Shown: positions 12,262-36,314 of the stretch, piece by piece
Layout: each line of letters begins with the position of its first letter
How positions within the stretch are numbered: the first letter of the stretch is position 1
Assembly (NCBI GenBank): GCA_000004985.1
Contig: GG738873.1
DNA from: Naegleria gruberi
Lineage: Eukaryota
Reading direction: 5' to 3' (one strand)
DNA: 64,000 bases
Notes under the pieces: model-generated
What the model was told of the DNA's origin: nothing
The model's database searches: none
The model's input: only the letters and a program-made list of their open reading frames with translations
Translations under genes and position numbers: made by a program

Positions 12262-15200
12262 TTATTTTACCATGATTGTCAATGTATCTGCAATTAAACT
12301 TGTTGACAAGTAGGTATTGTATCCAATAGTTTCTTTTGTATATCTAATGGCATATCCATATGGGAAATAAGTCCAATTATTGCCATTGCACCCATCAGAG
12401 GAGTGAATTACACTGAGCCAATCTCTTTCACTACCACAACCACCAAAACCATATTGAATTATGAAATGCCTTGGAGTTATTGAAGGACCAGTCAATTGCA
12501 TGGTAAAAGCAGTATAGCTATTAACATAAGAGCTTAATCCGTAAGAGGAAGATTGTATTTTCTGAGGTGTAAACCAATTTTTGAAATCAGTACCTGCTAC
12601 GTTGAATAGAATATAGTGTTGCATTGCTGAGTCCTTGTTAATTTCGATCTTTACAGTACCAAACGAACTCCAATAATTCAAGAGGTCACCTATTAATACT
12701 GTATCTGGAGTATACTTGTCCAATGTTCCCCTAATATTGATCTTTGAATTCCAAACATCTGCAGGTCCATATGGTTGACCAGTTGCAATCTTATTAACAA
12801 GTGTGTAACCACCTCCATCAGTGGTCATGTCACAATACACGTTGAACGGAGCTACTGATGGATCTGGTTGGATAGTATAAACACCATCACCAACATTACC
12901 ACCATAGACTCTGCTAGAGTTTGTTGGGTATCTATAATCTTGGCACGTTCTGGCATAGGTAAAATCAGCAAATTTCCTTCCTTCACCACATCCAACTATA
13001 CCAACAATTGAACAGGAAGGTCCATAACGAGAAGGCCCACAAAAACATTGTCCATCAACGCAAACTCCTGCATAGTTGCAAGTAACACCAAGATTAGGAG
13101 CAGAGAAGCAATAAAGCTTTCCAGTTGGTACGTTATTGTCTGATGATAGACAGTAACTATACACCGAGCCATCTGTACTCCAGATAGAAACATTACTAGT
13201 GGATATATACTCATTGCTCCAGTAACTGTTGCTATACATTCGGGATGGTATTGAATTAGAATAGTTCGTATTCCAATACAACGACAAAGGAATGGTATAG
13301 ATGTCATGTCTTGAGAAACTGGAGGTTTCTTGCTCACAGAATACAGCTAGTGGAGGAAATCCTAATGATCCTTGAATAAGATAAAGACCTCTACCTGTCA
13401 TACCTTGATATGTTTTTGAAGAATTTGTTGGATTACTATATTCTGCACAGTTCTTGGCAAATGTTCCATCTGCATATCTTCTTAATCCATTAATAGAAAC
13501 AACACCCACCAATTCACAGAATTTACCAAAATGGCCATATTCACATTGGCATGTATCATAATCCACACAAACTCCTTTGGAGGAGCAAACAGATTTGCTG
13601 GATGCTTGAAAATTGTTACAATATACGCAGAAAAATGGGTTTTGCTTGCACCATTCTGAGGTTCTGTTTTCCCCATCATATACAGCCATCCATGACCCAA
13701 CTGGATCTTCCTTTTCTGCAACGGCAAAATATGGACCAGCGTTGCCATCGGTTGTGTTGGATCCACCGTAAATATATATATAACCACCTTGGGAGGATAT
13801 TATTCCTGAACTTGTCATATAGTATGGAAGTAAACCAAATGTCATTTCCCACTTCAATGGATTTTCTGTAGTAGCTCTAAAAATGTTGAATGAAGATGAC
13901 TCAAATGTTGTGGAACCACCAAATAGATAAATGTAATCACCAACAACTTCAATAAATGCAGAATACAATGGCACAGGAATGACAGAACCATTTACAATCT
14001 CGAATTGTGTAATATTTGACAATGGAGCCCTCATGATAGTGTCTAATATAACTGGAGTGAAGCTTGGGACATTGGAAGGGTCCTCAATATCTGTCAGTGG
14101 TCTATAACTGAATATTCTAGAAATGCCACCAAATATATAAACATAATCACCAGATTGCATTATCATACCCGATGCAACAGGGACTGGGAGAGAAAATGGA
14201 GTCTTTTCCCATTGTTTCAAATCATATAGAGGACATTTGTAAATTGCATTTGACACGTTATTGTTAACAATTCCCCCAAACAAGTACATTTCCTCATTGT
14301 GTTTGAAAAAGTGAGAGTTATGAATTGAATCTGGGAATCCCTCATTTGATGTGATATTATACTCTATCATCGACCAAACATTTTCATTTTTAGAGATGTT
14401 TCTAGTGTACATGCTGAATCCATTATTTACAAGTGATGGCACTGTGTCATCAGCTTTTAACAAATAACCAATCTCACCCAAATCAAAGTAAGTCATCTTC
14501 CTCATATACCATGGCAAGGTCATGGTGACATGATTATTCATTCTAACAAACTTTCCACTTGGACTAAGAGAATAAATTTTAGAGATTGGCGTTCCGGTCC
14601 AATGGTATGGTTTTGTGTCATAGCAAGAACTTCCAGCAAATATTTCAATATTAGAACAATAACCCACAGCCATAACTGTCCCATCTGCTAGGAATAAATA
14701 ACTATTATCTTCATTACTAGTTATGTCAACCACTGGTTGGAATGAATAATAGACTTTGGTAGGAACAAGAACATTGGAATTAGTTAAGCCAGTACCTGTC
14801 TGACCAGCGTCACTCTTACCCCAAGAATATAGAGTTCTATCTTTGCAATAAACAAAATTATGGAAAGCTTTCGTGTGTATCATTGTGGCAAAACAAGTAG
14901 TGTTTGGTCCAAATTGAGATAAAATCTTTGGAAGTAATCTGTTAGTGGTTGAGTTATCTCCAACTTGGTAATAATTATTAAGACCCCATGAATAGACTCT
15001 TCCACTTGTAGTTAGAATCAAGTTGTGTCCATATCCGCATTGAATATCAGTAATTGTTTCATTGATATGTTTTGTTATAACTTCAATAGGTTCTCCTTGA
15101 GATACATTGTTATTAGTACCAAGTTGTCCCCATCCATTGTAACCCATTGAATACAGTCTATTGGTATTCGACAATACAAGTGCATGCTTAAAACCAGCAC

Positions 15201-16286
15201 AAACCCTAACCATAGTTTGATTCATTAAGGCTGCATACCTGTAAACAGAAAAAGGCCTGTTTTTTTCATCCCAAGTTCTATCCCCCAGTTGACCTTGATC
15301 GTTAGCACCCCAGCTCCATAGTTTTCCTGATGAATCAATTGCGTAGGCTGAAAAATATCCTAGTGCGATTTGCTCAATTTTTGCACCTCTAAATCCATTT
15401 ACAAATGTTGGGACAAACTTTGTTTTGGTTCCTCCGGTAGCCAATTGTGAACGTTCATTTAACCCAAAAGCAAAAACTCCCTTGTTTGTGAGAATAAGGT
15501 TGGAAAATTGATTTGCCTCGATTTGAAGAATATCCAATCCATCTAAAAGTTCAACAGGAGCATTATATATTAATCTAGTATCATTGGTTAGATGAATTCT
15601 TCCAAGATTACCATTTTCAAAAACTCCAGTTGAGTACAATTTACCGTTGGGCATTAAAATTAATACATGTTTTAACCCAGCACTAATTCTATTTCTAATT
15701 CTTTTAATCGGCAGTCTTGTGTCAAATCTTTCGTAAACCCCTCTTTTACAATTGACAGTAAAATGATCTTGGTTTGTTTCATTTAAATTTGTTTCTCTAA
15801 AATACAATTCTTCACCATAGTCTTCTACGGTGTAATTCTTAACAATTTCAGTTTTTTTCGAAGTCAATTCATACTTACATTCATGACATCAGAAGATTTT
15901 CTTCCCAAATCCTCGATACTGTTTAATCCCAATGAAAGAATATATGAATTTTCCAGTTCCCAACTCAATACCTTTGCAACATTTTGATTGTTTTTGGAAA
16001 CCATAGATTCGAAAATAGTCTTATTGATATTAAGTTGTTCCAGGATTGGAGCTGCTAAATTCAATGCGTCCTCCTTGTCAATAGCTATTGGCTTGGCTCT
16101 ACTGCTGACAAATTTGTCGCGCTCCTCCTGAAGATTGGTCATAACGTTGATAAAACTCTTTTGTTTATCCTTCCAACTTTTAACCAAGGACATTTCATAT
16201 TGTTGTTCCTGATTGTTGATGTCGATATATCCACTTATCTCAACCGTATCATATATTAAAAGTACTAGTGGTAAAGTTGTCATCAT
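12262..16286 (-). CDS. paralog A of the secreted RCC1-repeat/Kelch-repeat/EGF-like/fibrinogen-related (FReD) family; exons 15879–16286 and 12262–15837 (41-nt intron 15838–15878)
   Basis: Exon 1 encodes a hydrophobic N-terminus (MMTTLPLVLLIY) and a ~110-aa helical module, ending ...DVMN before GTAAGT. Exon 2 has RCC1 signatures (GKLWSWGANDQGQLGD), Kelch-type YLFGG/YIFGG blades, Cys-rich EGF-like segments and two FReD-like modules (NCAEYSNPTNSSKTYQG...; VYCDMTTDGGGYTLV). Confidence 0.75.
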
Positions 16287-16497
16287 CCTATTAATGTTCT
16301 GATCACCTACATGTAATGGTTATAAACAATATTTTCATCATTTTAGAATAGCAACTACTTGTGGGAGATGATAGAGAGTCACTTTTCACAGTCTTCTCTC
16401 CACTCATTTTCTCTTTTTTTTTAAGATTACTGTGCCTTTACGGTAATGTATGGCGATTTTACAGTTTTTTAACAGTATATTTAGCGCAAAGAGTTTA

Positions 16498-18113
16498 TTA
16501 CAGATCTAGCTTTCTTCTTACAGAACGCTCATCTTCAACCTCGTTGACTTCTCCTGTTTCATCATCATCAAACAATCCACCACTGCCTGGAGGTAGAATT
16601 TCAGAACCAGATGGTGTAGAAATTCCAGATTCATTAAAACTTCTCTTTTGAGTAATACTTGACATGGATGATAAATTTGAAGCTGGTGAAATTAATAATT
16701 TACCATGTTGTTGTGGAGTACATGTTGCTTCTCCCATCATTTCATCATTCGAAACCATGCTAATATTATTTACACTACCAAGAGAATCTCTCCCTCTGAA
16801 AATACTATTTGGTCCCACTAAACTCATCATTGAGTAAGATGAAAGACCACTTGTATTTCCTGGACTGTCTTCAAAGTTTAAAACCTTACTGACAGAATTT
16901 GTAATTCTGTGATGAATTTCTTCTCCATACATTTTTGTGTGAGATTCATAATCTCTTCTCTCTTGTTCGTCATGGTTGATTGCAAGACGTTGATAAGAAT
17001 CCATGGCATGTTTTCTCTTTGGAACAGGAAGGTTAAGTTTAGGAGTTGGTTGAACACCACGAGTAAAGTAAGGATGATTAAGAGCTTGTTCAGCTGTGAT
17101 TCTCTTCTTTGGATCAAAAACAAGCATCTTACTAATTAAATCAATAGCATCACGACTGGCAGCAGTAAAGAGAGCATGGAATTCAGTCTTTTGGAATGGC
17201 TCAAATTCAATATAATTAGGTAATAATTTCATTCCAGGCCATTCTTCCTCAGAAGGTGTTCCCAAACAAGCAAATATCTTTCCCAATTGATCAATATCAG
17301 AATCTCCAGGGAAAAGAGGAGCACGTAACATGAGCTCAGCAAATATGCACCCAATACTCCACATGTCCACACTTGGACCATATAACTCAGCTCCAAATAA
17401 TAATTCTGGAGCTCTGTACCATCTGGTAACACATTGTGGAGAGTATCTCTTATCTGGTGAGCCATATATTTTAGCAAGACCCTTTTTTTAGATAATTTGA
17501 ATGTCTAATGTGCATTGTATTCCTCAATACTTACAAAGTCAGCAAGCTTTAGCTCTACTTCATTGGTTTCTTCGTTTTTCCACAAGAATAGATTGGAAGG
17601 TTTCAAGTCACGGTGGAGTACCCAATTTTTGTGACAATAGTCTACTGCTTCCAAAATCATTTTCATATATTGTTTAATGTCAGTTTCATGTAAAACTATA
17701 GTCTTTTCCTTTATAACTTGTTCCAGATCGCCAAAGCCACAATATTCAAAAACTAAATTAATATTCTTCTTATTCACAAATACATCCAATAAATTTAAAA
17801 TATTTTGATGTTTAATTTCTTGGAGTGATTTAACTTCACGGATAGCAGAAAATGAAACACCTTCTTCAATACCTCGGGCAGAATCAGATGAAAGTGATCC
17901 GAGCTTTATCTTTTTGATGGCTACTGTTTGATTTGTTTCAAGATCTTTTAAAATCGTTATTAAATTATAAATATACAATAATAATTTGTAGTTGTTGTTA
18001 TAGTTACACATACCTTTACACTTGTAAACAATACCGAAAGTACCCTCTCCGATAAAACAAATTCTTTCATACCTTCGTGCTCTTTGATTAGCGGCAAGTA
18101 AATAGTCAAGCAT
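16498..18113 (-). CDS. CDK7: CDK7/MO15-like cyclin-dependent kinase; exons 18014–18113, 17535–17944, 16498–17481
   Basis: GEGTFGIVYKCK...AIKKIKLG, HRDLKPSNLF, DFGLAK (spliced across the 53-nt intron), WYRAPELLFGAELYG and GDSDIDQLGKIF...PSEEEWPGM all match CDK7. Both introns have GT..AG boundaries. There is a ~170-aa Ser-rich C-terminal extension. Confidence 0.8.
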
Positions 18114-18176
18114 TTTTTTTGGCTTGTTTTTGAATATTTTATATTGAAACGATATGATTTGGCGCCAACTAGTTTA

Positions 18177-20354
18177 TTATTTATTCAATAAATTTTCCAA
18201 AAGATTAATAATCTCTGAAAAGTGAGTATTGTTCATGCACCCTGGATCATTCATTTGTTTCTTTAACAAATCCAAAACATTTACCTTATTTTCATCTTTA
18301 AGCATTATCCAAAGTGGAGAGTCGGGCGAATCATCGATATGAGAATTGAATTCCTCAATTAAAAATAAAGCACTTTCAAAATCCTTATCATTAACACATG
18401 AAAAGAGTAAAGACCTCATATTTTGATTCTGTATAAAGGACAATTTGACAAGCAATTTGGAATAATGTTGAGGAACCTGATACTTTTCAAATCTTTGTTT
18501 CATGAATTTAATTACCTGAGGGAGAAGTGCTGTATTATTCTCAACTCTACCAACCAAGTAAGTGAAAGGTAAATTATTGAATGAATCCATTTTGAGAGCA
18601 TTAGCTCCATGTCTTATTAGGAACAAAATTGATGCCAGTGGCAATTCTATACAAGTCTTGTGGAAAAATGGTATATTACCAGAGGTTTGTTTGTTGTGAT
18701 CGAAAGGGCATTCGTTGATATCTAATCCATATTCTAGTAGATTACGGCAAATTGATAGCTTTCCCTGTTTTAGAGATTCGAAAAAAACATCTATTACTGT
18801 TGGAATTTCCTCATTTGTTGTCGAAAAATCCAACGAAATTTGTTGAGTAAGGCACTTGTGGAATTTTTTCTTCATATCTTGGAAACGAGGTTTTCCCAAA
18901 AGATAACATTTGGAAAAAGTCTCTCCAAATGTCCATTTCCACAAAAACTCACAAATTTGTTTACAAGTCTCACCCTTCTTTTTGTCATCGAGAGTTATTG
19001 GGCTGTTTGCATCTTCGAGCAAAATGTAAAAGAGTGGTGTAAACCTTCTAGAATCTCGTTGTAACAAGAGTTCTGGGCACTCCTTGTACAAAAACTTGAG
19101 GGTATCAATTTGACCAAACTTTGCAGCAATATGCATGAGAGTACAATTATAATAATTTGAAAATGAAATACATCTTAGGAAGCATCTAAATTCTTGTCGT
19201 TGTCTGATAACATTGTTAAATCTCTCGTGAAGAAGGCTTTTCAATTGAATGAGGGTTGATTGGTCATTATTTACAGTAGAGAGGCAAGAAATTAAAAGTG
19301 ATTTCCATTCTTCAGAATTCATATGTACAGTGCTTGGGATATTTACAATGGTAGAGGATTGTTGATTGGAAGTTTGTGAGGAAAAAAGAGGAGCAGTGGC
19401 TATATTTGAGTGTCTTCTCAAGTAGTACGCTCTGGAATTGAGGGTATCTGTTGTTTCCTTATTGTGTTGCTCAGACCCAAATGTGAAAGAGCTACAAGCT
19501 AAAGAGGCGAAACTTTGGGCCTCATCAGTTGCTTCAAGGGAACTGACAGTGCTCGAGAAGGAAGACAGAAAGAGTGAATTTGAAAGCGAAGTAGGTGTTT
19601 GTTCATCAGAACTCAGTACTGAACTGTTAGTCATTGTTGTTGATGTTGAGGTGTTGAGTATCAAGGAACTGTCATCCTCCTCTGTGTAATCATTATCAAA
19701 ACTATCAGAGGTTGAGGTTTCAATAATGGTATTAACTGTGGAGGAAGCAGGTGCATTTTCCAGCTCTTCGAATGCCTTCTCTATGGAACGAATATTGTTG
19801 GTAATGCGTGTTGGGGTGGTAGGGAAGTTGGTTGTCTGTTTTTCAAATTCATTCTCATCATCTGTTGTTATTTCACTCGTAAAGTAATTTGGTTTAATGG
19901 CTTTTGGTTTGATAGGTTCATCCTGTTGTTGTTGTTGCAATTCCTTCTTCTTTGGTCTGTGAGAGAAAATATCCTGATCAAACATAATATCTGACTCACT
20001 AACACAAGAGGAAAATAAAGGCGAGCTTTTAGTTTTACCGAAGAGAGTTCTACTTCGCAAAAAGCCACCACTCTTCTTTTCCAATGATTGATCTGGTGAT
20101 GATACGATTATTGGAATGTTGGATTTTTCTTGTTGTTGGGAAGAAACAGCTGGATCACTATCACTACAAATACTGGTATTACATGATGATTTGCCTATAG
20201 GAAATGTTGATGGAGCAATACTTGCTCTCCTCGTTGATGAAGGAGGTGATGTTGTTGAAGTGTTATTGTTATTACACAAATAGGTGCCACTCCCAAAGTT
20301 ACTCCTCCTAGGAAGAAGAATTCTGTTTGGAGTTGTTGGTGTTGTTGAACTCAT
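18177..20354 (-). CDS. ankyrin-repeat protein with long low-complexity S/T/N-rich N-terminal half
   Basis: 725-aa single ORF. The C-terminal half has ANK-like repeats (CTLMHIAAKFGQIDTLKFLYK; LIRHGANALKMD). Confidence 0.55.
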   Translation of the reverse strand: MSSTTPTTPNRILLPRRSNFGSGTYLCNNNNTSTTSPPSSTRRASIAPSTFPIGKSSCNTSICSDSDPAVSSQQQEKSNIPIIVSSPDQSLEKKSGGFLRSRTLFGKTKSSPLFSSCVSESDIMFDQDIFSHRPKKKELQQQQQDEPIKPKAIKPNYFTSEITTDDENEFEKQTTNFPTTPTRITNNIRSIEKAFEELENAPASSTVNTIIETSTSDSFDNDYTEEDDSSLILNTSTSTTMTNSSVLSSDEQTPTSLSNSLFLSSFSSTVSSLEATDEAQSFASLACSSFTFGSEQHNKETTDTLNSRAYYLRRHSNIATAPLFSSQTSNQQSSTIVNIPSTVHMNSEEWKSLLISCLSTVNNDQSTLIQLKSLLHERFNNVIRQRQEFRCFLRCISFSNYYNCTLMHIAAKFGQIDTLKFLYKECPELLLQRDSRRFTPLFYILLEDANSPITLDDKKKGETCKQICEFLWKWTFGETFSKCYLLGKPRFQDMKKKFHKCLTQQISLDFSTTNEEIPTVIDVFFESLKQGKLSICRNLLEYGLDINECPFDHNKQTSGNIPFFHKTCIELPLASILFLIRHGANALKMDSFNNLPFTYLVGRVENNTALLPQVIKFMKQRFEKYQVPQHYSKLLVKLSFIQNQNMRSLLFSCVNDKDFESALFLIEEFNSHIDDSPDSPLWIMLKDENKVNVLDLLKKQMNDPGCMNNTHFSEIINLLENLLNK

Positions 20355-20857
20355 AAATCCAATTATTAATATTCGTCTCGAAGAGCAAAAAGAAAGATTT
20401 TAGCCTTCAGAGTATTTGAACGCTTTTCTTCAAAGTACGATGGCGACCACAGAGTAAAGTTGTTGAGAAGGGAAGATAAGTGGCGCTGGTGAAGAAGCGG
20501 TGAAAGCCTTTTTTTGCTCTTTTGTGCCTCAAGCCTTATGCAAGGCCTATTGGTGTGAGTTGAATGATTCTTTACAGAGGCGATGATGGATGTGGCTTGC
20601 AGCTCGTTTATACAAAAGCCTGGTAATGATGAGTGTGTGAATTAACCAATAATTTTACATGTATTTCTATCATACAACATTACGTTAACTCTATATTAAA
20701 TTAAATATTAAGAAGGAAACGTGAGAAGTTAATCACATTAGAACGTAACATTGATTCTGCTTACCAATCTATTAATAAATATTAAAAAAATTTGCAATAA
20801 TAACAATTTAAAACTGTAAAAGAGTTTGTCCAAGTCATAACATTCCAACTCCTTTTT

Positions 20858-22397
20858 ATGAATAATAGGTGGTTGCCAACAAACGACGATTCCTCATTCA
20901 TCCCTCTCGATCTACTCTCGTCCTCAATTACAGAGTGTCCACCTCTTCATTCTGAATCAAAAACAGAATCACTAACGACATTAAAAAAGCCAAGCAACAC
21001 CCAAAATTCATACATTCCTAAACGAATTAATTCTAAAGAAACTCGTCATCACCTCGATCATTATTATTATCACCAATTACAACAAGAAATTAGAGAAGAT
21101 CCCGATCAAACAATGAATATATTTTATTATAAACAACAATCGGAAAATCAATCCAATGATCCGAAATTAGCTACCAGAGGATGTAGCGAATTTGATGAAG
21201 TAGTACAACAATCTTCATCCATTGAAGGTGGTTCCAAGAAGGAAATTATAGAAGACAAGGAAAAATCAATTCTATTCTGTGGATTTAATCAGTTAAATAA
21301 TTTATTTGCAGTTGGTACTGAACAAGGTTTCTATGTCTATTCAACAGGTAGTCTACGTGAAAGGACCAAAATGTGTAAGTACTATTATTGGTCAAGAACC
21401 CATTTCTAATTTTAAAAAGTATTTAATGGAGGTATTGGAATTGTTGAAATGTTATTCAAGTCAAAGTAAGTAATTGACATTCAATGGTGGAATATTTAAT
21501 TTAAACAGTATTTTTGCTCTTGTGGGTGGAGGTTCAAAACCAGCCTTTGCACCTGATCGAGTTATTTTATGGGAAGACTCTCAAAAGAAGATTATTTCTG
21601 AAATTTCCACTGGAAACAAACCAATTAAGGCTGTTAAGTTACATAAAAACTTGCTAATTGTTGTACTGGAAGATCAAGTAATTGTCTATGATCATGATAT
21701 TAAGGAAAGAAGCAGAGATTCTACAACTGATAATCCTTATGGTATTTGTGCAATTTCTCCTGATACTGAAAATATTGTATTGGCCTACCCTTCAGTTCAA
21801 GTTGGATATATCACAGTTGATCATTTGACCATTCCAAATAGAAAACTTCATATCAAAGCCCATGAATCAAAAATATCTCAAATAGCACTCAACAAGGATG
21901 GTACTCGTGTAGCAACAGCCAGTGAGAAGGGAACACTAATTAGAGTATTTGATACAACTACCAAACTTTTGGTTAAGGAAGTAAGAAGAGGATCTAAACA
22001 AGCTCACATTTATTCTATTGCTTTTTCAGATGATTCTAATTTCATTTGTTGCTCTTCAGATACAGGTACTATTCACGTTTTTTCTCTTGTGGACAATACT
22101 CAAAATAGAACTTCAAGCTTCTCATTTGTAGGGGGTTATATTGCAAGCATTTTCAATTCAGAATGGAGTTTTGGTGAATATCGAGGAGGAGAAGATGGCC
22201 TTGTTGATATACCAACATTATGTTCATTTGCACCAAGAAAAGAAGAAGAAAAAACAATAGCTATCAATGTTTTAACTGGTAAAGGTGAGGTTGTAATTTT
22301 AACATTTGACGTTTCAGGAGGTCAAACAACCCCAACTAATGTTGAAAAGAAATCATTTGTTTCAAATGAATCTCCAAATAATTCTCCATCTCTTTAA
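20858..22397 (+). CDS. WIPI/Atg18-family PROPPIN (WD40 phosphoinositide-binding); exons 20858–21374, 21420–21465 (46-nt micro-exon), 21509–22397
   Basis: The spliced product reads ...FNGGIGIVEMLFKSNIFALVGGGSKPAFAPDRVILWED. Downstream are WD repeats and the LRRG-type PI3P-binding motif (KEVRRGSKQAHIYSIAFS). Both introns have GTAAGT donors and AG acceptors and phases fit. Confidence 0.8.
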
Positions 22398-22534
22398 AGG
22401 ATGTATTATGAATAAAAGTGTAAATATTAGCATTTTGGATGATTTTATATTTAATTTTATTTTTGAATTTAAAAAAAAAACTAAAACTTTACTGTTTTGT
22501 TGATGGAGTCCTCTAGCAAAGATTATTAGGAGAT

Positions 22535-24658: not shown

Positions 24659-24662
24659 ATAT

Positions 24663-26344
24663 TTATCTCTTTTTTCCATAAGTGAAAAAGTTTTCCATAA
24701 TACTGCCAGAGGTGGCTGGATCAGAAAATGGACAACCAGAAGAACAAGGTTTGAATTCTTCTGACTTTTTGTTTTTGTAATATCTCAACCAAAAAGCTCT
24801 ATCAAAACTCTTCAAGAGTAGCCAATCATCTTGCCTTCCCTTATCAAAAAAGAGAGGATCCTTCTTTAAAATTGTATTGACAAATTCATCTAGTTCAGTA
24901 TGAGTGGTGAATTTGAAAACTTCTTGAGTAAAACCAAACTTTTCTTTCACTTCCTTTGGTAATGTATAATTCAACTCGCAACTTCCATTTGTTCTTAATT
25001 TCTCACAATAGTCATGAAGGGCTCCTTTAAACTTGAGCTCCAAACCCAATACTCTACAAAGTTCGTCAACAAAATGTTGACAGTTAGCCTTCTTTTGAGA
25101 ATACATCATGTTCATATTCCACTCACAAATTACATTACTAATCTTTTCGAGGGCTTCTCCAACCTGTGGTCCATGGAAGCATCTATCCACGTCAGCAGCT
25201 AGTACAGCAGCACCAGAGTAGCATTTTCTTGGTACAATTAATGATGAGTCATTCCACTATTTGTTGTTTCGATATGTTTCAATGAAATGATATTAAATTC
25301 ACTTACCTCTAAATACCATGGTCCTACTACTAGAGCAGAGTGAAAGAGTCCAAATTGAGGAACAACATTGAATGTATCTAAAACTGGAGAAAGGAATTTT
25401 CTGAAATTTCTTTGAGCAGCAGTTCTATGTAGTTCAACAATTACTAATTTGACCTTTAAAAATTCTTCATCCTTAATTATATAATTCTTATTAGTTTGCA
25501 GATCAGAAATTTCATTTTCCATTTTTTGTAAATCTCTCCTTTCTTCTTCATCAACCGCAGAATTGTTACCATCTTCAGCAATATTGGAAGCAATATTTGG
25601 AGCTCTACTTGAAGGGATAATTGATCCGAGATGTGATGTTGTAGAAGGTGGTGATCTACCAATTGGTTTTGAAGAAGGGGATGAGGTTGTATCATCATTG
25701 ATCAATTCTGTAATCGTCTTTTTTGTTGCAACAAAATCCTTATTCAAATAACTGTTTAAGAGATGCTTCTTGACGACTAAATTCTTTGCCTTGTCCTTTT
25801 TCTGTTTATCTGACAAGTTTTGCAAACCTTTCAATTTATCCAATTTACTCAAACACTTTTTAATGGCAACATCTTCATCAATCTGAGGAGTATGTGGGGT
25901 AGAAGGACTATTAATTGTTGTCAGTGATGATGGAGAAGTTGTATTATTTACATTGCTTTTTGTGGTGAGTGTTCGATCTAATTCTCTCATCAATTTGATT
26001 GCCACTCCAGTCGGAATATTCATTTCATCAACAAGTGTATCCTTTGTTAGGGACTCTAACATGGATCCATCAAGACCAACAAAATGTTTCTTATATTCAT
26101 CAAAACCATGAGTAGAAAGCCACTCCATCACCATATCATTGGTCCAATTAGAAATTTCCAAAATATGATTATTTGTTTGTTGTTGTATATAAAACCCTGA
26201 TGATGCTGTTGCTCTATTAATTTGTTGTTGTTGATTTTGTTGTTGGGTGAGAGGTTGTTTCTCAGAGGCGGCTTGTTGATCTTCCTCCGTAGTGACACCT
26301 CTTCCTTCACTCCAACTTGTCCACCAACTTTGGCCAAGACCCAT
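24663..26344 (-). CDS. SAM-domain + LRAT/NlpC-P60-like (H-box / NCxHFV) protein; exons 25307–26344 and 24663–25256 (50-nt intron)
   Basis: SAM-like segment (MVMEWLSTHGFDEYKKHFVGLDGSMLESL). The His box (FHSALVVGPWYLE) spans the GAG|GTAAGT...TAG intron, and the Cys box (ANCQHFVDELCR) is typical of the LRAT/H-rev107 family. Confidence 0.6.
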
Positions 26345-26401
26345 TTTTTATGTTGGAAGATATTTTGATTTTCTTGCTGCTCTAGAAATTTATTAATAAT
26401 T

Positions 26402-29130
26402 TTAATTACAAATGGTTGGATATTTTGAACAAATTGTTGAAAGGGCTGTAGTTGTACCACCAACCCAACCATCAGGGAAGCTTGTTCTGGTGGTTCTATA
26501 AATGTTAGGACCAACCAAACTGTTGCCTGTGGAAGCACCTGAGAACACGACATCATTAGCACTACTTGAAAAGACAGAAGAACCTGAATTGACATGGAAT
26601 GTGAGTTGGGATTTAAGGGTCCAGGAAACAAAATCAGATGTTGAATAAATCTTGTTTGATTGTGATGAAGAAAGGGATGTCAGACCTCCAATTATATAAT
26701 AATTACTGTCTGTGTCAACCTTGTAGACAAAAGCAGAATGTAGGACTGAAGGGAACTTGGAATTAAACATGATTTCCCAGTTTCTCATATCTGAATCTAC
26801 GCTTGTTCTTAATACAGTTTGAGAAATAACGAGATTTTGAATTGCATCAACATCTCTAGAAGAGTTGAAAAGATGTGTTTGCTTAATACCCCCAATGATA
26901 TACACATATTGTGTATCAGAAATCAGCATTCCTGATGCCAATGGGAACGGAAGCTTCTGGTCTAACAATTCCCATCCAAACAATGGGTCAGAAATAGGAG
27001 CTCTGTAAATTGAATTTGATATTTCATTATTAACAAACCCACCGAGCATATATATATATTCCTTGATTCTAATGATGTGTGTACTGTAGATTGATTTCCC
27101 ATAGAGCGTGTTATTGAGAACTGAGGTTGGAGATACTTGCTGCCATGAACTGTAATAGCTACCAGGATTGGTACTGTTGTAGTATCCAAATTCTAGACCA
27201 TTTCTTGATAAGAAACTCTTATCAGATTTAAGTAAATAACCTTTTCCGTTCAAATTGAAATATGGACTTTGTCTCAAATACCATGGTAAATAGGTAAAAG
27301 TGTACATGGAATCTTTTGTAAAGCTGTTAGAAACAGAACCAATTGACCTGAATACAGTTGTGGAGAAAGTACTGCCCGAGTAGTAGATGGATCCATCCAT
27401 CGTTTGAAGAGCAAAGCTTCCCGTTGAGCTACTAGCAATATCCAAAATGGAATCAACAAACTCTGTGCTAAAAGACGAGTAAAGAGTAGGTGAGGTCACA
27501 GTGGAAGCAGTTGAACCGAGTCCCAATTCACCATTTGAGTTTCTTCCATATCCGTACATTTTACCATTTGTGCAAATGAGTATTGTACTATAAAACTTTG
27601 AGTAAACTTTTTTAACACTACAAGGTGCGCTTAGGAGTTGAGGAGTGAACCTTGTGGTTGTGGATCCATCACCCAATTGACCATAGTTGTTGTATCCCCA
27701 TGTAACAACTTTTCCATCTGTAGTCAAAACAACAACGTGGTTAGATCCGCATTGAACATCAAGGATGTTAACTGCAGAGAGAGCACCAGTGAGTGGAATT
27801 GCTACAGGTTTACTTTTAAAAGAAGGATCTGTTACACCAATGCCTAATTGACCTAGAGAATTATCTCCAAATGAAGCTAACGTATTGTCACTTGTAAGGA
27901 CCACAACAAAACTATCTCCAGCGCAGACTTTGACAACTTGCTTGTTTTTTAAAGGTCCATTATTCTTTAGCACCTTAAAAGGTCTAAATTTATCTTCTTG
28001 GGTGCTGTCACCAAGTTGTCCTAAAGAGTTATCACCCCAGGCCCACAACTCGCCATCAGTTGTGATGGCGTACGAGCTTCTGCCTCCTGATGCAATTTGC
28101 TCAACTTTCTTCCCCAATAATCCTTTTACTTTAACTGGATTCAAACTATCAGCTTTGTTTCCAGTTCCTAATTGACCATTAGAATTGGAGCCAAAAGAGA
28201 ACAATCCCTCATTAGTAAGTACAAGATTTGTACGAGAGTATGTTTCTACTTGGTAGATAGTTTCAGAAGCAATAGGAATAGAGTCATTATACCTTAGTGC
28301 AGAACCGGAATAGGTTCTTCCAAGTAGCCCTACCTTTAAAGAGTCAATTCCAGTGGAATAGAGTTTTCCATTTCCTAAAATTACTATAAAATGTTGCTCA
28401 CCTCCGGAAAGGAAATTTCTAATTTGTTTTACAGTTCCTTGTGAGGTCTCTAAATTGAACAATGAATTGCCACTGTTTAGAAATCTTCCAGTTGGAACTT
28501 CTTCATTGCTGCCAATACTTTTGGTATAGGTAAAATCTTGTGATGTCAAAATGTCTTTTGAAATCATTCTCTAAGTGCAAACTAATTAATTTAGAATTTT
28601 TGTAAATTACTTACAGTGTGAAATTTTGTTATTGAGCTATTCGAAAAAGCAATGACCTTATTAATCATTTGCGTGACAATGCCAAGCTCTTCAAGCTTAG
28701 ACTTAATATCTTCCAAGGATTTTGATTTCAAAGCACTAAGGTTGTTTATGTAGTCTGCTGTAACTCCATACTGGGAAGCAAATGCAGATATACCATATGT
28801 ATCGTACAGAAAAGAAATTGAACTAGTAAATTCCAAATGAAGGTTTTTTGAGGTTTCTAAAGGAGGAATAAGTGTGGTGTTGATGTAATCAATTACATTG
28901 GAATGGGATACTCTTTGATTGAGACTCATCCTTAAGCCTTCCTCATAGTCCTCATATGTAAGGCCATCCACAAGTAACGACTCGTATGATTGGGAGGCAA
29001 AGACAGAATCTGTGAGAGTTACCTCCGATTAATTGTTTTACTAATACCTACATGAAGAATAATTCAATAATAATAAAATTACAAGTAATCCAATCCACCA
29101 AACTGTTGTTGTTGTTGGCAATCTACTCAT
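26402..29130 (-). CDS. paralog B of the secreted RCC1/Kelch family (no FReD tail); exons 29051–29130, 28615–29009, 26402–28570
   Basis: Exon 1 is a signal peptide (MSRLPTTTTVWWIGLLVILLLLNYSS) ending at donor GTAGGT. The 41-nt and 44-nt introns are in phase. Exon 3 has RCC1 (LWAWGDNSLGQLGD) and Kelch (YMLGGF, YIIGG) signatures. Confidence 0.7.
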
Positions 29131-29342
29131 GTTGTGAGGAGGCCATTGCTTCTTTAAACACATTTTTGTTTTGTATGAGTTTGGTCAGATTTACAGCATA
29201 TTTGCATGCCGTAGACCCCGTAATGGCAGTAAGAAGCTGTAAATCTAACAACACCTCAAAAAAAAAATTAGATACCATCAGCTTACCATCACAGAGTGTG
29301 TGATCACATTGGAATAGTGAGGAATTGTATTATAGTGTAAGA
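29131..29342. promoter_or_regulatory. short shared intergenic region between head-to-head paralogs B and C (putative bidirectional promoter)
   Basis: Only ~210 bp separate the inferred start codons of two divergently transcribed paralogs. Confidence 0.3.
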
Positions 29343-32084
29343 ATGTTGTCTAAATCAAAAATGTGTGGGACTGTGATTCCCCGACTGTGTGTTATCGTGT
29401 TAATATTGTCTCTTATTCTAACAGGTATGTTGAAAAATAGTTGGAGTTTATATCTTTTCGTTAGTCTTTGCTGAAACAGACTTGACCAATGAGCAAATTG
29501 ACGAATTGAGAGCAAAAATGTTAAAAAGAAAAAACTATCTGGATGTAAAACAACTTTATGTAAAACAAAAAGCTGAAACCGACAAAACCAATATTAAAAA
29601 GAGATTGTTCGAGACCAGGAATAGCTTAGATGTTGCAGGAAACTTTTTAAATGAAACTACAATTTCTCAGAGTTCTTACGATGCATTAATGCAAACTAAA
29701 CAATCCCAATTGCAAAACTTAATGAGCATACACTTGGAAGTAGATAATTTACTCTCCATCATCCAAAATTCTGCTGACATGTTGAATGATGACGTAATAA
29801 CATTTGTTAGAGTAAGTAGATTTAAACCTTACTGAATAATTCTTTTTAGCAACATACCCAAAAAGCACGTACTATTGATAAATATGTATCCACCAATCAA
29901 ACACTTACAACATCTGATTTCAATATAACTTCAATGGAAGGAACTTTACCATCACATTATATGGCCAATTCAAATGGTATAAGAAGAATTAGGAATAGAA
30001 TATCTGCTGGCTATCAACACTTCTTATTACTTTTACCAAATGGAAAATTGTACACAACCGGATTACTTCAAAGTAACAATTTGGGTAGAAGCCAAGGATC
30101 AAACATGCTTGATATTTTATACCCTGTAGAAGGTTTAGAAGGAAAGGAAATTTTACAATTCGAATCAAATGGTTTTTTCAGTTTAGTTCTCACCACTGAT
30201 GGTGTTTACTCATTTGGCTTTAACAATAAGGGTCAATTAGGTACTGCCGATATTGTTGACAGAAATTATGCAGTTAAAGTGAAAGGATTTGCTGGAAACA
30301 ATATTACTCAAATTGCAGTAGGAATATCTTCTTCTTATGCAATTGATACCAATGGAAAAGCATGGTCCTGGGGAAGCAACGAATTTGGTCAGTTAGGAGA
30401 CAGAACAGGAGGTGACAAGGCAAGACCTTTCTCAGTTTACAATAATGGAACAATGTTTGGTAAAAAGCCAGTCAAGATCTGTGGTGGTAACAGATACGGA
30501 GTTATATTAACAAAGGATGGTATTCTCTATTCATTTGGTAACCATGATGTTGGTCAATTAGGAATTCCCTCAGTTTCAGTGTCGTACAAGTCTATTGAGC
30601 CAGTGAAAGTTGTTTTGTCAGCCTTTGTAAATTCCACAGTAATTGATGTTCAATGTGGATATGACCATGTTTTAGTATTGTTGGCAGATGGTTCAGTAGG
30701 TGCTTGGGGTAATAACAATTATTATCAAATGGGTGACCAATCAACAGCAATAAGATTTGTTCCAAAACTTATTTCTCAAATTCCTTGCAAAGTAGCATCT
30801 ATTCATACACGTTTCAATACTAACTTTGCCATTTGCAGAGACAATACAATCTACGCTTGGGGACGAAATGATAATGGTCAAACTGGTTTAGGCACAAGCT
30901 ATAGTGATGGTTCAGCCATGCCTAATGTATTGGTACCAACAAAATTAACATTTGTTCCAGAAGGCAGAGTGGTAGAAATTGCTACAACTCAATTTCACAC
31001 TGTTCTACTTACTTCTGAAGGAGTCTTCCATGGGGTTGGACGTGCTGACACCATGTTCAGATCTTCCTCTTTCAATCCAAACACTTTTTCTGTGTTAAAT
31101 GCATACTTGAAATCTGTTGTTCCTTGGCAATTAAGAAAGATACCATATTTTGAAACTGCAGACAGACTTTATATTTTGTTGGCTGACAAGGTAGCCCCAA
31201 CAAGAAGCTACAACGGATTCAACATGTATTTCAGAAATAGAAATGAGTCAGAAAAGGCCTGGAGATTAGTAGAGTTTGACAAAGAAACGAACACAGGATT
31301 CCCTGTTTCTATATACAGTACACATTACTTGAAACTTGACGAATATGTATACTTCTTTGGTGGATTTATTAATGACCACCTATCGAATGCTGTTTACAGA
31401 GCTCCATACAGTGATGTTGAAACAGGTTGGGAGCTTTTACAAAATGTCACAATTCCGGTTCCGCTCGCTGGTGGAATGACAGCAATAATCAATAATTTCT
31501 TTTACATCTTTGGCGGAATATCAAGCTTGTACAATAGTACCACAGGTGAATATAGACCAGAAGTATCTGATATCATAATGAGAGCCCCTTTGTCCAATAT
31601 TTCTGACTGGCAAATAGTTCCAAACAGAAATTTGGTGACACCCATTCATACTGGCCAAATGGCAATTGTTTGGCCTCATGTATACATTTTTGGTGGTTGC
31701 CAAACTGTGTTCACTTCATCTATGAATATTTTCAGAGCTTTACTTTCTGATCCAACCACTTGGGAAATGACATTTGGTTTGTTGCCTCATTACACAGCTA
31801 ATGCTGCTATTGTTTCTACCGGGGAGAATTTAGTGGTTGTTGGTGGAGGTGCATATCCTGAAAAACCAGGAGGTGTATTCATAGCCAAGGCAAACAAAGC
31901 TGATCCAGTAGGATCCTGGATGGCTGTTAGTGAAGTACTTCCAGATTTCCAGGCTGCAGCTGGTGCTCTCAATGGCACAGAGCTTACTCTGATTGGACAT
32001 GATTTTAGAACAACAACAAATAATCTTGATGTTGCCAGTCTATTAATTGGTCAAACTGTTGAAATTACTTTGTTTGATAATTAA
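29343..32084 (+). CDS. paralog C of the secreted RCC1/Kelch family (no FReD tail); exons 29343–29424, 29480–29811, 29850–32084
   Basis: Exon 1 is a signal peptide (MLSKSKMCGTVIPRLCVIVLILSLILT). The introns are 55 and 38 nt (GTATGT...CAG; GTAAGT...TAG). Exon 3 has RCC1 (KAWSWGSNEFGQLGD) and Kelch (YFFGGF, YIFGG) signatures. Confidence 0.7.
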
Positions 32085-32662
32085 ACTTCCATTTTGTGAA
32101 TATGTTTATTAAGTAAAAGGTTACGAAATGATTATTAAATTTATCAGCTGTTTACTTAGTGAAAATTCGAAGTTGTAATTGGAACCTCTGGACTTTAAAC
32201 ATCAAATATTGACACTTAAGATTTAAGATTCAATAAAGCTGGTCTCAAAATTTATGAACATCAAGTGAACTCTCACCCATACATGTGACAGAGACAAGAA
32301 ATTATCTTGGAAGTATTTTTTTCATTAATTGATTAATTGTGAGTTCCTCTTTTTGAGATTTCATTCTCAAAGAATAAATAGTAGAACCTAAAGTTTTTGA
32401 AGTTCCTTGAGTTGTTTCAAATCAAAATTTACATTATTGGTAGTTTGATGAGGTTGCTAATTGTGTTGGTTGCTCTTTGTTGTCCATTCCTCCATTAATT
32501 ATGTTTTAAACCAACAAACACCATTCATCTAGTAAGGACATTTTTTTTGTTGGTTTTCTCAGTGGAAAAGGAAACGTACACCTTACCGTAGATCTAAAAA
32601 TCCGCTCAGCTTGTTTACTCAAATTACAGTTATTTGCGGTGCACAACTCAGAAAAAAAAAGA

Positions 32663-35600
32663 ATGATGAAGACCCTCAACGCTGGTTTGCGGTCTAAATT
32701 GCAATGTGTGTGTGTAGCTTTTTGTAGGTTGTATATTTCCGCTTACTATAAATTTTTCATAGTAATAATTTGCTTCACATTGAGTGTACATACATTTGAT
32801 GCCTCAAATGATCAACAACAACATGCTGTTGAACTTGTAAAAGGATGGAAAGAAAAACAAAATAGTTACAATAGAGTTCTGGTTGGACTAAAACAACAAA
32901 AAGATGATTTTTACTCCTCAAAGATAAAGCAAAAGCTAGTGAATATGCAAGAAGCACTTGATGGTGCTTCAAGGATATTGGATGACTTGGGAGTTAATCA
33001 AACAATGTTTGATCAAATGGTCACATCAAAGAATAAGGACTTGATAAGAGCAATGAGCGTGGAAGTGGAATTGCGCAATGTCATTACCTTGGCTGATAAC
33101 TCACAAAGAATATTGGGAGAGAATAGTTTTAATATGATTAATGTAAGTTTATTTTGAGCATTGACAATTTAGTTTTGTAAAGAATTTCACCGAAGCTATC
33201 TATGGAGAGGAATTATTATTCAGACAAAACACTTTGAACTTTTCAATGAACCACCAAATGTATTTCAACTCTAGACCAGGTATTTTTCCTTCCTATGAAT
33301 ATCATTCTTCTATTGTCAGAGTGAGAAACAGAATTGTTGCAGGTGCAAATCACGTACTTGTATTAATGCCTAATGGTAAATTGTACTCGACTGGTGTCTA
33401 CAATAATGGAAATTTGGGAAGAACAAGTCAGGATTCTAGACTCCTCTACAATAACCCTGTTGAAGTTCTTGACGAATTAGAAATTCTTCAAATTGAAGCT
33501 CACAGAAATAGCAGCATGGTGTTGACTACGAATGGTCTCTATGTTTTTGGTTTAAATGATCGTTCACAATTAGCAACTGGTGGAACTAAATCTGTGTTGA
33601 AAGCAACAAAAGTTCGTGGTTTTAACTTTGACACTAAAATAGTTCAAATTGCTATGGGTAATTATGCTTCGTATGCGATAGATGAAAATGGAAAATTGTG
33701 GGCATGGGGAGCTAATGATCAAGGTCAAATTGGTGACAGAACTTGGGATGAAAAGAATAGACCATTCTCTGTTTATAGATACGGAGCTTTAGCAAATCAA
33801 ACAGTTGTTAGAGTTTGTGCTGGAAATGGTAGTGTACTTGCTTTAACATCAACAGGTAATCTGGTAGCAATTGGAGACAACACATACGGTCAATTGGGTA
33901 CTGGTGATTACGTTTCAAGTGGTGAGCCTGTAATTGTAAAGATGAAACCATTCCAAAATGAGACAATCAAAGAAATTCAATGTGGTATGTTTCATAACCT
34001 TGTCCTTACAGCCAGTGGTAAAGTTTTTGCTTTTGGTGGTAATATGTATGGACAAGTTGGAACTGGTAACACAACAAACATACCAATACCAACTTTGATT
34101 TCTGGTATTGACTGCACCGTAACCAAGATCCACTCAAAAGGTCATGTGAGTTTTGCTGTTTGTGCATCTAAACCAGGGTATTTTTATTCTTGGGGATTGA
34201 ATGATATTGGGCAAACAGGTGCTGGACTTTCTTATGGATTAAAAATTCTATCACCAAAACTTGTAAAATACTCAGCTCACCCAATTGTAGATATTACTTC
34301 CAATGTTGATAATTCCTTCCTTTTTCTTGCTGATGGATCCATTCATGCCACAGGTGGCTGTTTTAATACCCAGTTTTTCCTTGGACAAGATTGCTTTGAT
34401 GCATCTCCCAAGTACTTTTCCGAAACCGTTCTAACAAAGAAGTATGCTTTCTCTATTAACGGACTTTTCACTCAAGTACGACACCAAACCAATATGCAAT
34501 TACACTGGTATCAGAGAAAACCAGTTTATTTCGAAATGGGTGATATTGCATATTTACTTCAAACAGAGAACACTCTTCCAACAAGAAGAAATAACGGGTT
34601 CAATATGTACACCACAAACGTTACAGCAAATGACATGGTATGGAAAATGGTTGAGTATAATGAAACTACCAACACTGGTTTCCCTCACTCTATTTATAAT
34701 ACACACGTCCTTAAACATGGTGAATATGTCTATTTGTTTGGAGGTGTTGTGAATGATGATATTTCAAATAGAATTTACAGAGCACCTGTCTATGATTTGG
34801 TTCAATCATGGGAATTAATTAATGAAACACTTCCAATTCCAATAGCATCTGGAATGCTTCTGACAGTAGGAGATTATGTTTACATTTTTGGTGGTATCAT
34901 TTCTATCTATGAGTTCAATTCTACCGTCGATCTTGGTCCAACAATGAGACACAATGTAACCAATTGTATAATGCGAGCTTCAACAACAAGCATAACAAAT
35001 TGGGAGATTGTACAAGATGTTATTCCCCTTCCCCTGCATTCTGCTTTTATCGAAGTGGTTGGTAATTATGTCTACTTGTTTGGTGGCAGCTCAACAGTAC
35101 GAGGAAGTGGTATTAATATCTTTAGAGCAACATTACAATCTCCAACTGTATGGGAGATGACCTTCGGTCTTCTTCCTTATTACGTTACTAATACCGGTCC
35201 ATTTTCCTCAACAGAAGATAAGTTATATATTTTTGGTGGTACAAACTCATCCACTAGTTCAACTGGGCCTTACTTTGCCTTTGGTAAGAAGAATGATATT
35301 ATTGGATCATGGACTGCAATACCGGATACAAACATAGAGTTGAATATTATTCACAATTCTACACAATTTGATTGGTGCACCAAGTATCCATTGTTATGCT
35401 ATCAATGTTCTAACCCAGATTATTTTTTCAGTGCTGTTACTGGGCACACTGGTCCACAATATTATGAGGCTACTAATCCAAGTGTCTGCTCTTCAGCTGG
35501 TATTTGCGTTGGTAATGATGGATGTAAATGCACTCCTGGTCGATTTGGTGACCGATGTCAATTTACAGGAATAGTGGCTTACAATAATGGCAGACAATAT

Positions 35601-36314
35601 GCCGATGGAAATGTTGCTGAGTCTTGTGCTGCCTACAAAAATCCAACTAACACCTCTCGAGTATATCAAGGTATAATTGGTGATGGTTTCTATATTATTC
35701 AAATTATTGGAACAACAACACCAATTAAAGTATATTGTGACATGACTACAAATGGTGGTGGTTGGATAGCTTATTATACAGGTAGTGCTAACAAGCCAGT
35801 ACATTTGGCTAAAGGATATCAAAACCCAGGTGAAGATGTAAACTCTGGAGATTACATCGTAGATCTTAGAAGTTTCTTTTTTACCCAAGTTATGTTTTCT
35901 AAAGGTGGACAAAGCGACTGGTTTACTTGTATTGAGTGTGGAAATGGTTACACAGTTGGTTATTCAAATGATGGTGCGTTGACTTCAAATAGCCTGGGTT
36001 CTTGGCGTGCCGGTGGAGCAGTTACTGGTACCTACCAGTTGTACATTGCAGACAATGCTCCAGCATACGCAGGAACAACAAACTCAGCTGCCTTCATGAT
36101 GTACTATTCAACATCAAGTTATACATTAAACCCAACAAGTGGATACGATACCACCTCATACACAATTACTGGTTACAGAACAGATACTGGAGGCAAGATT
36201 ACGAGAACATCAGTAGGTGGCAGTTCTATATATAATGAATGCTTTGGCGTTTGCTTTAGAGCAAACTTGGGAGGTTCTTGTGGTGCAGGCAGCATGACTG
36301 TTTACCTAAGATAG
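32663..36314 (+). CDS. paralog D of the secreted RCC1/Kelch/EGF-like/FReD family; exons ~32663–33142 and 33183–36314 (40-nt intron). The 5' exon structure is uncertain and exon 1 may contain a further intron
   Basis: The exon-1 module (VELVKGWKEKQNSY...FDQMVTSKNKD) is homologous to the gene A exon-1 module and ends ...NMIN before GTAAGT, the same position as gene A. Exon 2 has RCC1 (GKLWAWGANDQGQIGD) and Kelch signatures and a C-terminal FReD-like module (SCAAYKNPTNTSRVYQG...VYCDMTTNGGGWIAYY). Confidence 0.7.

Follow-up and report, generated by a model that had tools for sequence, protein, structure and literature searches.

A Naegleria gene family that joins RCC1-like and Kelch propellers to a predicted signal peptide and, in two members of the gruberi locus, to a fibrinogen-like tail

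What might an amoeba do with proteins that join two types of β-propeller to a hydrophobic N-terminus and, in some cases, to a fibrinogen-like domain? The question is raised by four paralogous genes, here called A to D, in a 64,000-nucleotide stretch of Naegleria gruberi DNA (contig GG738873.1, assembly GCA_000004985.1; the window). A sequence-only reading had described them as a locally expanded family of secreted recognition proteins. The four genes lie where that reading had placed them, with intact reading frames and 33-48% identity, and they share the proposed layout of hydrophobic N-terminus, N-terminal module, RCC1-like domain and Kelch-type propeller, followed in A and D by EGF-like segments and fibrinogen-like tails. 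On balance we lean towards a family, present throughout Naegleria, of binding or adhesion proteins of the secretory pathway that are built from several domains and possibly lectin-like. The domain types are all known, and databases already contain the genes and their orthologs as hypothetical proteins whose domain names were assigned automatically. Apparently not described so far is the combination signal peptide-helical module-RCC1-like-Kelch-EGF-fibrinogen-like as a conserved Naegleria family; literature searches on Naegleria with RCC1, Kelch, fibrinogen, signal peptide and the locus tags yielded no publication that treats it.

Gene structures and secretory features

The gene models were obtained by reading the open reading frames (ORFs) of the window together with the DNA around their 5' ends and splicing them by hand, and are known from sequence alone. 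Each gene consists of three exons, namely a signal-peptide exon, an exon for a Pro-poor module of ~115 amino acids (aa) and one large exon. Gene A (12262-16341, minus strand; exons 16341-16311, 16264-15879 and 15837-12262; introns of 46 and 41 nt) reads in frame through 1330 aa to a single stop. Gene B (26402-29130, minus; exons 29130-29052, 29009-28615 and 28570-26402; introns of 42 and 44 nt) encodes 880 aa, gene C (29343-32084, plus; exons 29343-29424, 29465-29811 and 29850-32084; introns of 40 and 38 nt) 887 aa and gene D (32663-36314, plus; exons 32663-32723, 32763-33142 and 33183-36314; introns of 39 and 40 nt) 1190 aa. The reading frames are long and intact, with large exons of 1201, 721, 716 and 1026 codons in DNA of 35% GC.

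All introns are of the GT..AG type and 38-46 nt long. Intron 2 (41, 44, 38 and 40 nt in A, B, C and D) opens in all four genes with the phase-0 GTAAGT donor that had been noted right after the N-terminal module, and behind it the conserved N[YF]T..YGEE..F(F)R picks up in frame. Intron 1 (46, 42, 40 and 39 nt) falls within the hydrophobic core of the predicted signal peptide and opens in A, B and D with the donor GTAGGT, preceded by T. The range of 38-44 nt given earlier for the introns thus holds for intron 2, but with intron 1 it extends to 46 nt. The starts proposed for B, C and D already imply intron 1, while gene A probably starts at 16341, with the same donor as B and D, and not at the alternative, unspliced start 16286.

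Pairwise BLASTP aligned A with D at 47.5% identity over ~1000 aa and the other pairs at 33-38%, with E values from 1e-102 to 0. Gene B is the most divergent member (34-38% identity to the others) and, like C, ends without an EGF-like or fibrinogen-like tail. No fifth copy was found in the window by tblastn. B and C are divergently transcribed, with start codons 212 bp apart (29131-29342), and possibly depend on a common bidirectional promoter.

The current N. gruberi annotation differs from these models. The large exon of B is NAEGRDRAFT_49708 (XP_002676255.1, 721 aa) and gene C corresponds to the truncated NAEGRDRAFT_49709 (659 aa); neither reference model includes the two 5' exons, which encode the signal peptide and the N-terminal module, and both need correction. 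For the large exon of D no NCBI model appeared in our searches, the 98% cluster being made up of ENA sequences only. Taken at face value, the annotation would mean that we have joined the 5' exons wrongly and that each large exon is translated by itself into an intracellular protein, as the two reference models with only the large exon, or part of it, would have it. However, the 5' exons, splice positions and in-frame continuity are conserved in the four paralogs and in the N. fowleri and N. lovaniensis models, and the large-exon ORFs of A and D have no ATG near their 5' ends and are listed with TTG starts. We consider an intracellular family very improbable.

In each of the four proteins the N-terminal segment is the only 19-aa window with a Kyte-Doolittle value of 1.6 or more, and by the same measure there is no second transmembrane-like segment and no hydrophobic C-terminus. 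The signal peptide was judged by hydropathy and the -3/-1 rule only, with small residues at these positions after the hydrophobic core (VFA before S in B, VFA before E in C). In D the predicted signal-peptide region (aa 1-~32; 32663-32797, plus) is split by intron 1, and the equivalent exon-1 segments are 16341-16311 in A, 29130-29052 in B and 29343-29424 in C. The N. fowleri and N. lovaniensis proteins likewise have hydrophobic N-termini, and where exons 2 and 3 meet, A, D and their orthologs keep an N[YF]T sequon. Disulfide-type modules, of which A and D carry an EGF signature and a domain resembling the fibrinogen-related domain (FReD), are typical of extracellular proteins. We count the three-exon plan and the hydrophobic N-terminus, conserved in paralogs and orthologs, in favor of passage through the secretory pathway, and take the single hydrophobic segment, the disulfide-type modules and the sequon as localization clues. 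The earlier proposal of secreted proteins therefore stands in the sense that the secretory pathway is most likely.

Export of comparable propellers within the genus is documented for N. fowleri. According to the S5 Table of PMC11964265, conditioned medium of axenic cultures contained A0A6A5BKQ4, an RCC1+EGF protein with signal peptide (105 kDa, 15 peptides), and A0A6A5C8W6, a Kelch protein with signal peptide (98 kDa). Neither is among the orthologs of A to D identified here, but as listed there they show that such propellers are exported in Naegleria.

Between signal peptide and propellers lies the Pro-poor N-terminal module, which spans aa 33-147 in D (32798-33142, plus) and has its counterparts at 16223-15879 in A, 28980-28535 in B and 29467-29811 in C. 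Its ~115 residues include 0-2 Pro, 0-1 Cys and 20-29% charged residues, and its hydropathy has the strongest period at 3.6 residues, a value reached by 41 of 1000 shuffles. Neither a Pfam match nor a PDB sequence match (best E 0.3) was obtained. The module is probably helical. The ~110-aa helical module described earlier is thus present in all four proteins, its helical state being compatible with composition and periodicity.

The RCC1-like and Kelch propellers

The RCC1-type repeats read from the sequence are confirmed over the full length of a propeller in all four proteins, with Pfam scores far above the gathering thresholds: PF25390 reaches 209-246 bits (cut-off 150; E 1e-61 to 1e-72) and PF00415 133-173 bits (cut-off 21.7; E 1e-39 to 1e-51). 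In D the domain extends over aa 191-544 (33312-34373, plus), with PF25390, PF00415 and PF13540 far above their cut-offs and profile coverage from position 35 to 354 of 363; in the paralogs it lies at 15708-14644 (A), 28432-27356 (B) and 29979-31052 (C), again with all matches above cut-off. Judging by the length of ~355 aa and the profile coverage, the domain would have seven blades. The closest sequences of known structure are eukaryotic, HERC2 (3.5e-43), UVR8 (6e-40) and RCC1 (1e-22), with HERC1 and RPGR also among the matches, and eukaryotic RCC1-like domains such as those of HERC2 and UVR8 thus match the Naegleria domain strongly as well. The top non-Naegleria matches to D are nevertheless bacterial and metagenomic RCC1-repeat proteins, which cover 15-44% of the query. 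These join the repeats to Ig, FN3, chitobiase-type, T9SS-sorting or choice-of-anchor domains, without Kelch, EGF or FReD-like parts, and show that the use of such propellers outside the cytosol is widespread. BLIP-II is a further secreted RCC1-like propeller.

The Kelch-type blades are also borne out, more weakly than the RCC1 repeats. Pfam repeat models recognize them in D (aa 594-872; 34521-35357, plus; Kelch_6 35.4 bits against a cut-off of 25.3, Kelch_1 23.2 against 20.1) and in A (14496-13666; Kelch_6 29.2 bits, Kelch_2 23.8 against 21.3), while in C (31140-31946) they match below threshold only and in B (27268-26447) not at all; whole-domain Kelch models stay below their cut-off (36-41 vs 50 bits). 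A family profile built from nine members finds Kelch structures in the PDB, namely KLHDC10 (3e-8), nitrile-specifier protein (1e-4) and LZTR1 (3e-4). In a large protein database it retrieves 115 proteins at E<=1e-5, almost all with several Kelch Pfam families, the best of which are multi-Kelch proteins of ~400 aa (E 1e-52 to 1e-25). Four clear h-h-h-GG blades ~50 aa apart, together with degenerate ones over ~280 residues, suggest a propeller of about six blades.

The nearest non-Naegleria Kelch relatives form a large set of ~400-aa stand-alone metagenomic proteins, one of them labeled as from an uncultured Caudovirales phage (UFOVP1290_423). Scanning metagenome DNA with the Kelch profile gave five weak relatives (26-35% identity) and no new family member.

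Several of these relatives carry the JGI label 'N-acetylneuraminic acid mutarotase', and YjhT/NanM is among the weak PDB matches (E 0.14). Both would suit secreted carbohydrate-processing enzymes with a catalytic Kelch propeller of the type of bacterial NanM sialic-acid mutarotase or fungal galactose oxidase. Yet the JGI labels are automated and the best solved matches, KLHDC10 and LZTR1, are non-enzymatic Kelch adaptors, so that we give a catalytic role little credence.

Attractin/MEGF8, galactose oxidase and NanM are extracellular proteins, and attractin, galactose oxidase and NanM provide examples of Kelch propellers in that setting. Their likeness to the Naegleria proteins is a Kelch propeller outside the cytosol, beside EGF-type modules. 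The propeller model shared by attractin and LZTR1, PF24981, scores 24.5 bits in C, below its cut-off of 50. A to D differ from attractin and MEGF8 in lacking CUB, PSI, C-type lectin and laminin-EGF domains as well as a transmembrane segment. The premise that RCC1 and Kelch folds are normally intracellular accordingly holds for eukaryotes only, and there with the RCC1+EGF and Kelch proteins listed for the N. fowleri secretome (PMC11964265) as counterexamples; among bacteria, RCC1 proteins with surface domains are abundant.

Fibrinogen-like tails and the proposed role

In D the Kelch propeller is followed by a Cys-rich segment with one EGF signature (aa 878-941; 35373-35564, plus), and A has two Cys-rich/EGF segments (13653-13510 and 13086-13006, minus). 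The PROSITE pattern EGF_1 (C-x-C-x5-G-x2-C) occurs at residue 928 of D and at residues 902 and 1070 of A. Pfam EGF models remain just below their cut-offs in A (EGF_Teneurin 22.5 bits against 24.3, EGF_Tenascin 19.1 against 25); the EGF-like segments claimed for A and D are therefore indicated by the PROSITE signature and narrowly missed by Pfam.

The C-terminal domains of D (aa 942-1190; 35565-36311, plus) and A (aa 1084-1330; 12265-13005, minus) carry the YCDMTT(D/N)GGG(W/Y) motif as quoted before. Both pass the 30-bit cut-off of NF040941, the 'fibrinogen-like YCDxxxxGGGW domain', with 40.9 bits for D and 54.5 for A. The 221-position model PF00147 (Fibrinogen_C) matches only positions 11-53 in A (31.8 bits) and 12-46 in D (23.9 bits), and the remaining ~180 tail residues gave no Pfam match even at E 10. 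Against PDB sequences, the D-type profile aligned over ~45 residues and the A-type profile over as many as ~125. We also considered treating the A-type and D-type tails as interchangeable copies and rejected it, as they match each other over residues 2-70 only. Gene A further contains an internal partial copy of the N-terminal subdomain (aa 916-980; 13315-13509, minus), which aligns with the first ~60 tail residues, lacks the GGGW and gives no NF040941 match; the copy recurs in the A-like proteins of N. fowleri and N. lovaniensis and also in FDP41_001824 and C9374_009414.

Modeling of the D tail with AlphaFold failed with a 10-sequence alignment (pLDDT 53.7), whereas a 50-sequence alignment gave a usable model. 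The predicted structure has a FReD-like fold, with low confidence for residues ~166-230, the region of the P-subdomain Ca2+ site and ligand pocket. Searching 1.84 billion representatives with the D tail yielded 595 matches, most of them covering the first ~70 residues and a minority 160-200. The relatives that align end to end, over ~250 aa at 25-36% identity, are YCDxxxxGGGW proteins of the NF040941 type from Myxococcota, metagenome-assembled genomes of Proteobacteria, corals, octocorals and the sponge Oscarella. They share with D a terminal strand, ..SVG(I/V)R or ..TVYLR, and bear the domain after He_PIG, MopE, choice-of-anchor D or EGF modules, never after RCC1 and Kelch. A profile search with the tail family also led to corals, octocorals and Oscarella, whose protein is labeled 'intelectin-1-like'. 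In a plain neighbor-joining (NJ) tree the Naegleria tails form a separate long branch, and the family's Cys cluster and several invariant residues are lost. As this tree shows just that branch, no donor lineage can be named.

Compared with animal FReD proteins (ficolins, FIBCD1, tachylectin 5A, FGL1, angiopoietins, tenascin) and intelectins, the similarity ends after ~50-70 residues for the D-type and ~125 for the A-type, and the predicted structure gives TM-scores of 0.3-0.45. The Naegleria tails have no recognizable Ca2+ site or acetyl-binding pocket and no stalk of the collagen or coiled-coil type immediately in front of the domain. The tail is a divergent member of the FReD superfamily, of the bacterial-type YCDxxxxGGGW family and not a canonical animal FReD. 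This refines the fibrinogen-related tail of the sequence-only reading, which holds at the level of the superfamily. The tail family has a patchy distribution over bacteria, cnidarians, a sponge, Naegleria and an amoebozoan, and so bears on the origin of FReD- and intelectin-type lectin domains; if A and D are secreted binders, they would put a fibrinogen-superfamily domain into a free-living heterolobosean, far from animals. As a side observation, giant proteins of 3100-4500 aa repeat the fibrinogen-like N-terminal unit 13-15 times; the amoebozoan Phalansterium solitarium is the source of at least one of them.

The tenascins deserve separate mention. Tenascin FReDs give the A-type tail profile its best and longest alignment (positions 23-146, E 7e-5), the order of helical module, EGF-like segment and C-terminal FReD-like domain recalls tenascin, and automated annotation names related N. 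fowleri proteins 'Tenascin-X'. A to D could hence be structural proteins of a matrix, cell coat or cyst wall, tenascin-like multimers that cross-link the cell's own polymers and do not recognize foreign cells. But A to D show neither EGF nor FN3 repeat arrays, B and C are tailless, and oligomerization of the four proteins is itself only a proposal drawn from their sequences. We regard a structural role as rather improbable.

The reading we prefer, a binding or adhesion family of the secretory pathway, would work as follows. A cleavable N-terminal signal peptide would direct the protein into the endoplasmic reticulum. The Pro-poor, probably helical module of ~115 aa that comes next may serve as an oligomerization or pro-region. 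Two rigid β-propellers, RCC1-like of the 7-blade type and Kelch with ~6 blades, would act as interaction platforms outside the cytosol, and not as a Ran guanine-nucleotide exchange factor or as ubiquitin-ligase adaptors. In A and D an EGF-like spacer would present the C-terminal globular fibrinogen-superfamily domain, as in tenascins, ficolins and angiopoietins. The likely job would be the binding of ligands outside the cell or in the phagosome lumen, for instance glycans or proteins on the surface of prey bacteria, on the substrate or on the coat of the amoeba itself. We infer secretion, oligomerization, ligand binding and the nature of the ligand from the features described. If the proteins are secreted binders, they offer an example of RCC1-like and Kelch propellers at work outside a eukaryotic cell and bear on the way in which amoebae that feed by phagotrophy, among them the pathogen N. 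fowleri with its orthologs, bind prey or host surfaces.

One may extend this to a private extracellular recognition system by which Naegleria would tell prey or surfaces apart in phagotrophy. Of its three β-rich domain types, RCC1-like propeller, Kelch propeller and YCDxxxxGGGW head, the fast-evolving head would be a lectin of the ficolin/intelectin kind, and the proteins would form multimers through the N-terminal module. Assembled through gene transfer and shuffling, it would be a protist counterpart of the animal FReD opsonins. This is speculative, and we think it unlikely to hold in full.

Several observations weigh against the binding and adhesion reading. The D tail keeps 33 of the 55 positions conserved in its bacterial and cnidarian relatives and is without the Cys cluster or the K, D and G-H positions; as these are lost, and the model has low confidence there, no conserved ligand site can be claimed. 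B and C are without any tail, so a FReD-based function cannot be family-wide. N-glycosylation sequons of A to D are not enriched over shuffles and hence uninformative, and it is composition and a weak 3.6-residue periodicity only that suggest a helical or oligomerizing N-terminal module. The four N. fowleri orthologs (A0A6A5BZJ7, BWR5, BU37 and BW45) were not found in the supplement text of PMC11964265 that was searched, and for the exported RCC1+EGF protein A0A6A5BKQ4 its S5 Table gives the DeepLoc 2.0 label 'Lysosome/Vacuole'.

The same label, which that table also gives to the Kelch protein, fits a lumenal location. On this account A to D would be endolysosomal, phagosomal or secretory-lysosome proteins that act on prey in food vacuoles and reach the medium via exocytosis only, and the signal-peptide features would be the same. 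No sorting motif and no transmembrane anchor was identified in A to D, however, and the DeepLoc label concerns proteins other than their orthologs. Such a lumenal family seems to us unlikely, if worth keeping in view.

Distribution, age and genomic neighborhood

In a search with the complete D protein, more than ~45% of the query was covered by Naegleria proteins and two environmental sequences alone; the remaining matches were bacterial and metagenomic RCC1-repeat proteins that aligned with the RCC1-like domain alone. No protein outside Naegleria showed the RCC1-Kelch-tail architecture in our searches, in line with the earlier view that it is specific to one lineage.

Within the genus the family is conserved across three species. 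The orthologs of N. fowleri (FDP41_001824, FDP41_001825, FDP41_001826 and FDP41_001922) and N. lovaniensis (C9374_009412, C9374_009413, C9374_009414 and C9374_009311) have the same architecture, exon plan, hydrophobic N-termini and two tail types, and appear in UniProt as 'EGF-like', 'RCC1-like' or 'Fibrinogen C-terminal domain-containing protein'. D is 50% identical over 99% of its length to FDP41_001825, in which the same three exons encode aa 1-20, 21-136 and 137-1172. In the N. fowleri protein CAG4717363.1, intron 2 is kept as a 17-aa in-frame insert (VSVVICLVEAAQHIFNK) at the same junction, residues ~170-190, probably an unspliced-intron artefact that shows where the conserved intron lies. 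The species differ in gene order and orientation, and the fowleri/lovaniensis lineage has an extra D-like duplicate. FDP41_001824, _001825 and _001826 are in tandem, as are C9374_009412, _009413 and _009414, while the A-like genes FDP41_001922 and C9374_009311 are ~100 genes away from the tandem members. In an NJ tree A groups with these two A-like genes and D with the FDP41_001825/001824 group. Gene C has its highest identities (46-47%) with FDP41_001826 and an ENA protein, but is weakly resolved in the tree and not joined to them; gene B is a long-branch outlier for which no ortholog was detected. As orthologs of A, C and D occur in both N. fowleri and N. lovaniensis, the duplications predate the split of N. 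gruberi from these species. To call the family locally expanded is thus misleading: its paralogs are old, and in the other species, too, three members stand in tandem.

Between species the parts of the proteins diverge at different rates. Propellers are 45-63% identical to their orthologs (59-63% where compared directly with the tail), and the tail beyond its first 70 residues is 26-31% identical; between N. fowleri and N. lovaniensis the corresponding values are ~90% and 68%. A fast-evolving tail fits a ligand-facing domain. A metagenome contig carries a 98% identical copy of D with the same neighbors. Compared with this copy, D has a pN/pS of 0.27 and 21 amino acid changes, all within residues 254-873 and none in the EGF-like segment and tail (313 aa), and it is under purifying selection. 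Comparing introns with exons was uninformative here, both introns being identical in the two copies.

These rates bear on the idea, which takes up the sequence-only reading, of a recently and locally expanded, diversifying family of innate-immune lectins like the fibrinogen-related proteins (FREPs) of invertebrates. A tail that past its first 70 residues evolves several times faster between species than the propellers, with a predicted FReD-superfamily fold, would speak for such lectins. Against this stand the four window copies, with 33-48% identity and orthologs of three of them elsewhere, whose duplications predate the N. gruberi/N. fowleri split, and the comparison of two N. gruberi-type strains, with zero amino acid changes in the 313 aa of EGF-like segment and tail vs 21 elsewhere. 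The analogy also fails by taxon, the host being a protist, and by architecture, as no immunoglobulin-superfamily domain was found by Pfam. A FREP-like family is in our view improbable.

In our searches, RCC1-like domain, Kelch propeller and tail all had their nearest relatives outside Naegleria among bacterial or environmental sequences. This hints at acquisition from bacteria, a result towards which the composition of the databases and the word-based prefilter of the searches are biased.

The surroundings of the cluster include several reverse-transcriptase (RT) ORFs. One on the minus strand at 3213-5096 (RVT_1, E 9e-26) has a C-terminal part that weakly matches the DNA N6-adenine methyltransferase Dam (PF05869, 23.6 vs 28.1 bits, below threshold); if real, a fusion of RT and methyltransferase would be an unusual feature for a Naegleria retroelement. 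Further RT ORFs on the plus strand (7210-11648), one with an endonuclease/exonuclease/phosphatase domain and LINE-like, adjoin assembly gaps; runs of N occupy 1-2822, 5268-5317 and 8188-8237 of the window. Directly downstream of D lies a questin oxidase-like gene (36423-37886, minus; PF14027, E 9e-27), which is also present on the metagenome contig with the 98% identical copy. Two ORFs on the plus strand, at 39494-42187 and 50823-54752, combine NHL repeats with teneurin/tenascin-type EGF arrays, the second with a C-terminal protein kinase domain in addition (receptor-kinase-like), and in N. fowleri an EGF_TEN protein adjoins the family cluster. Other ORFs of the window are identical to the N. 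gruberi NEG-M proteins NAEGRDRAFT_58274, _80040 and _68517.

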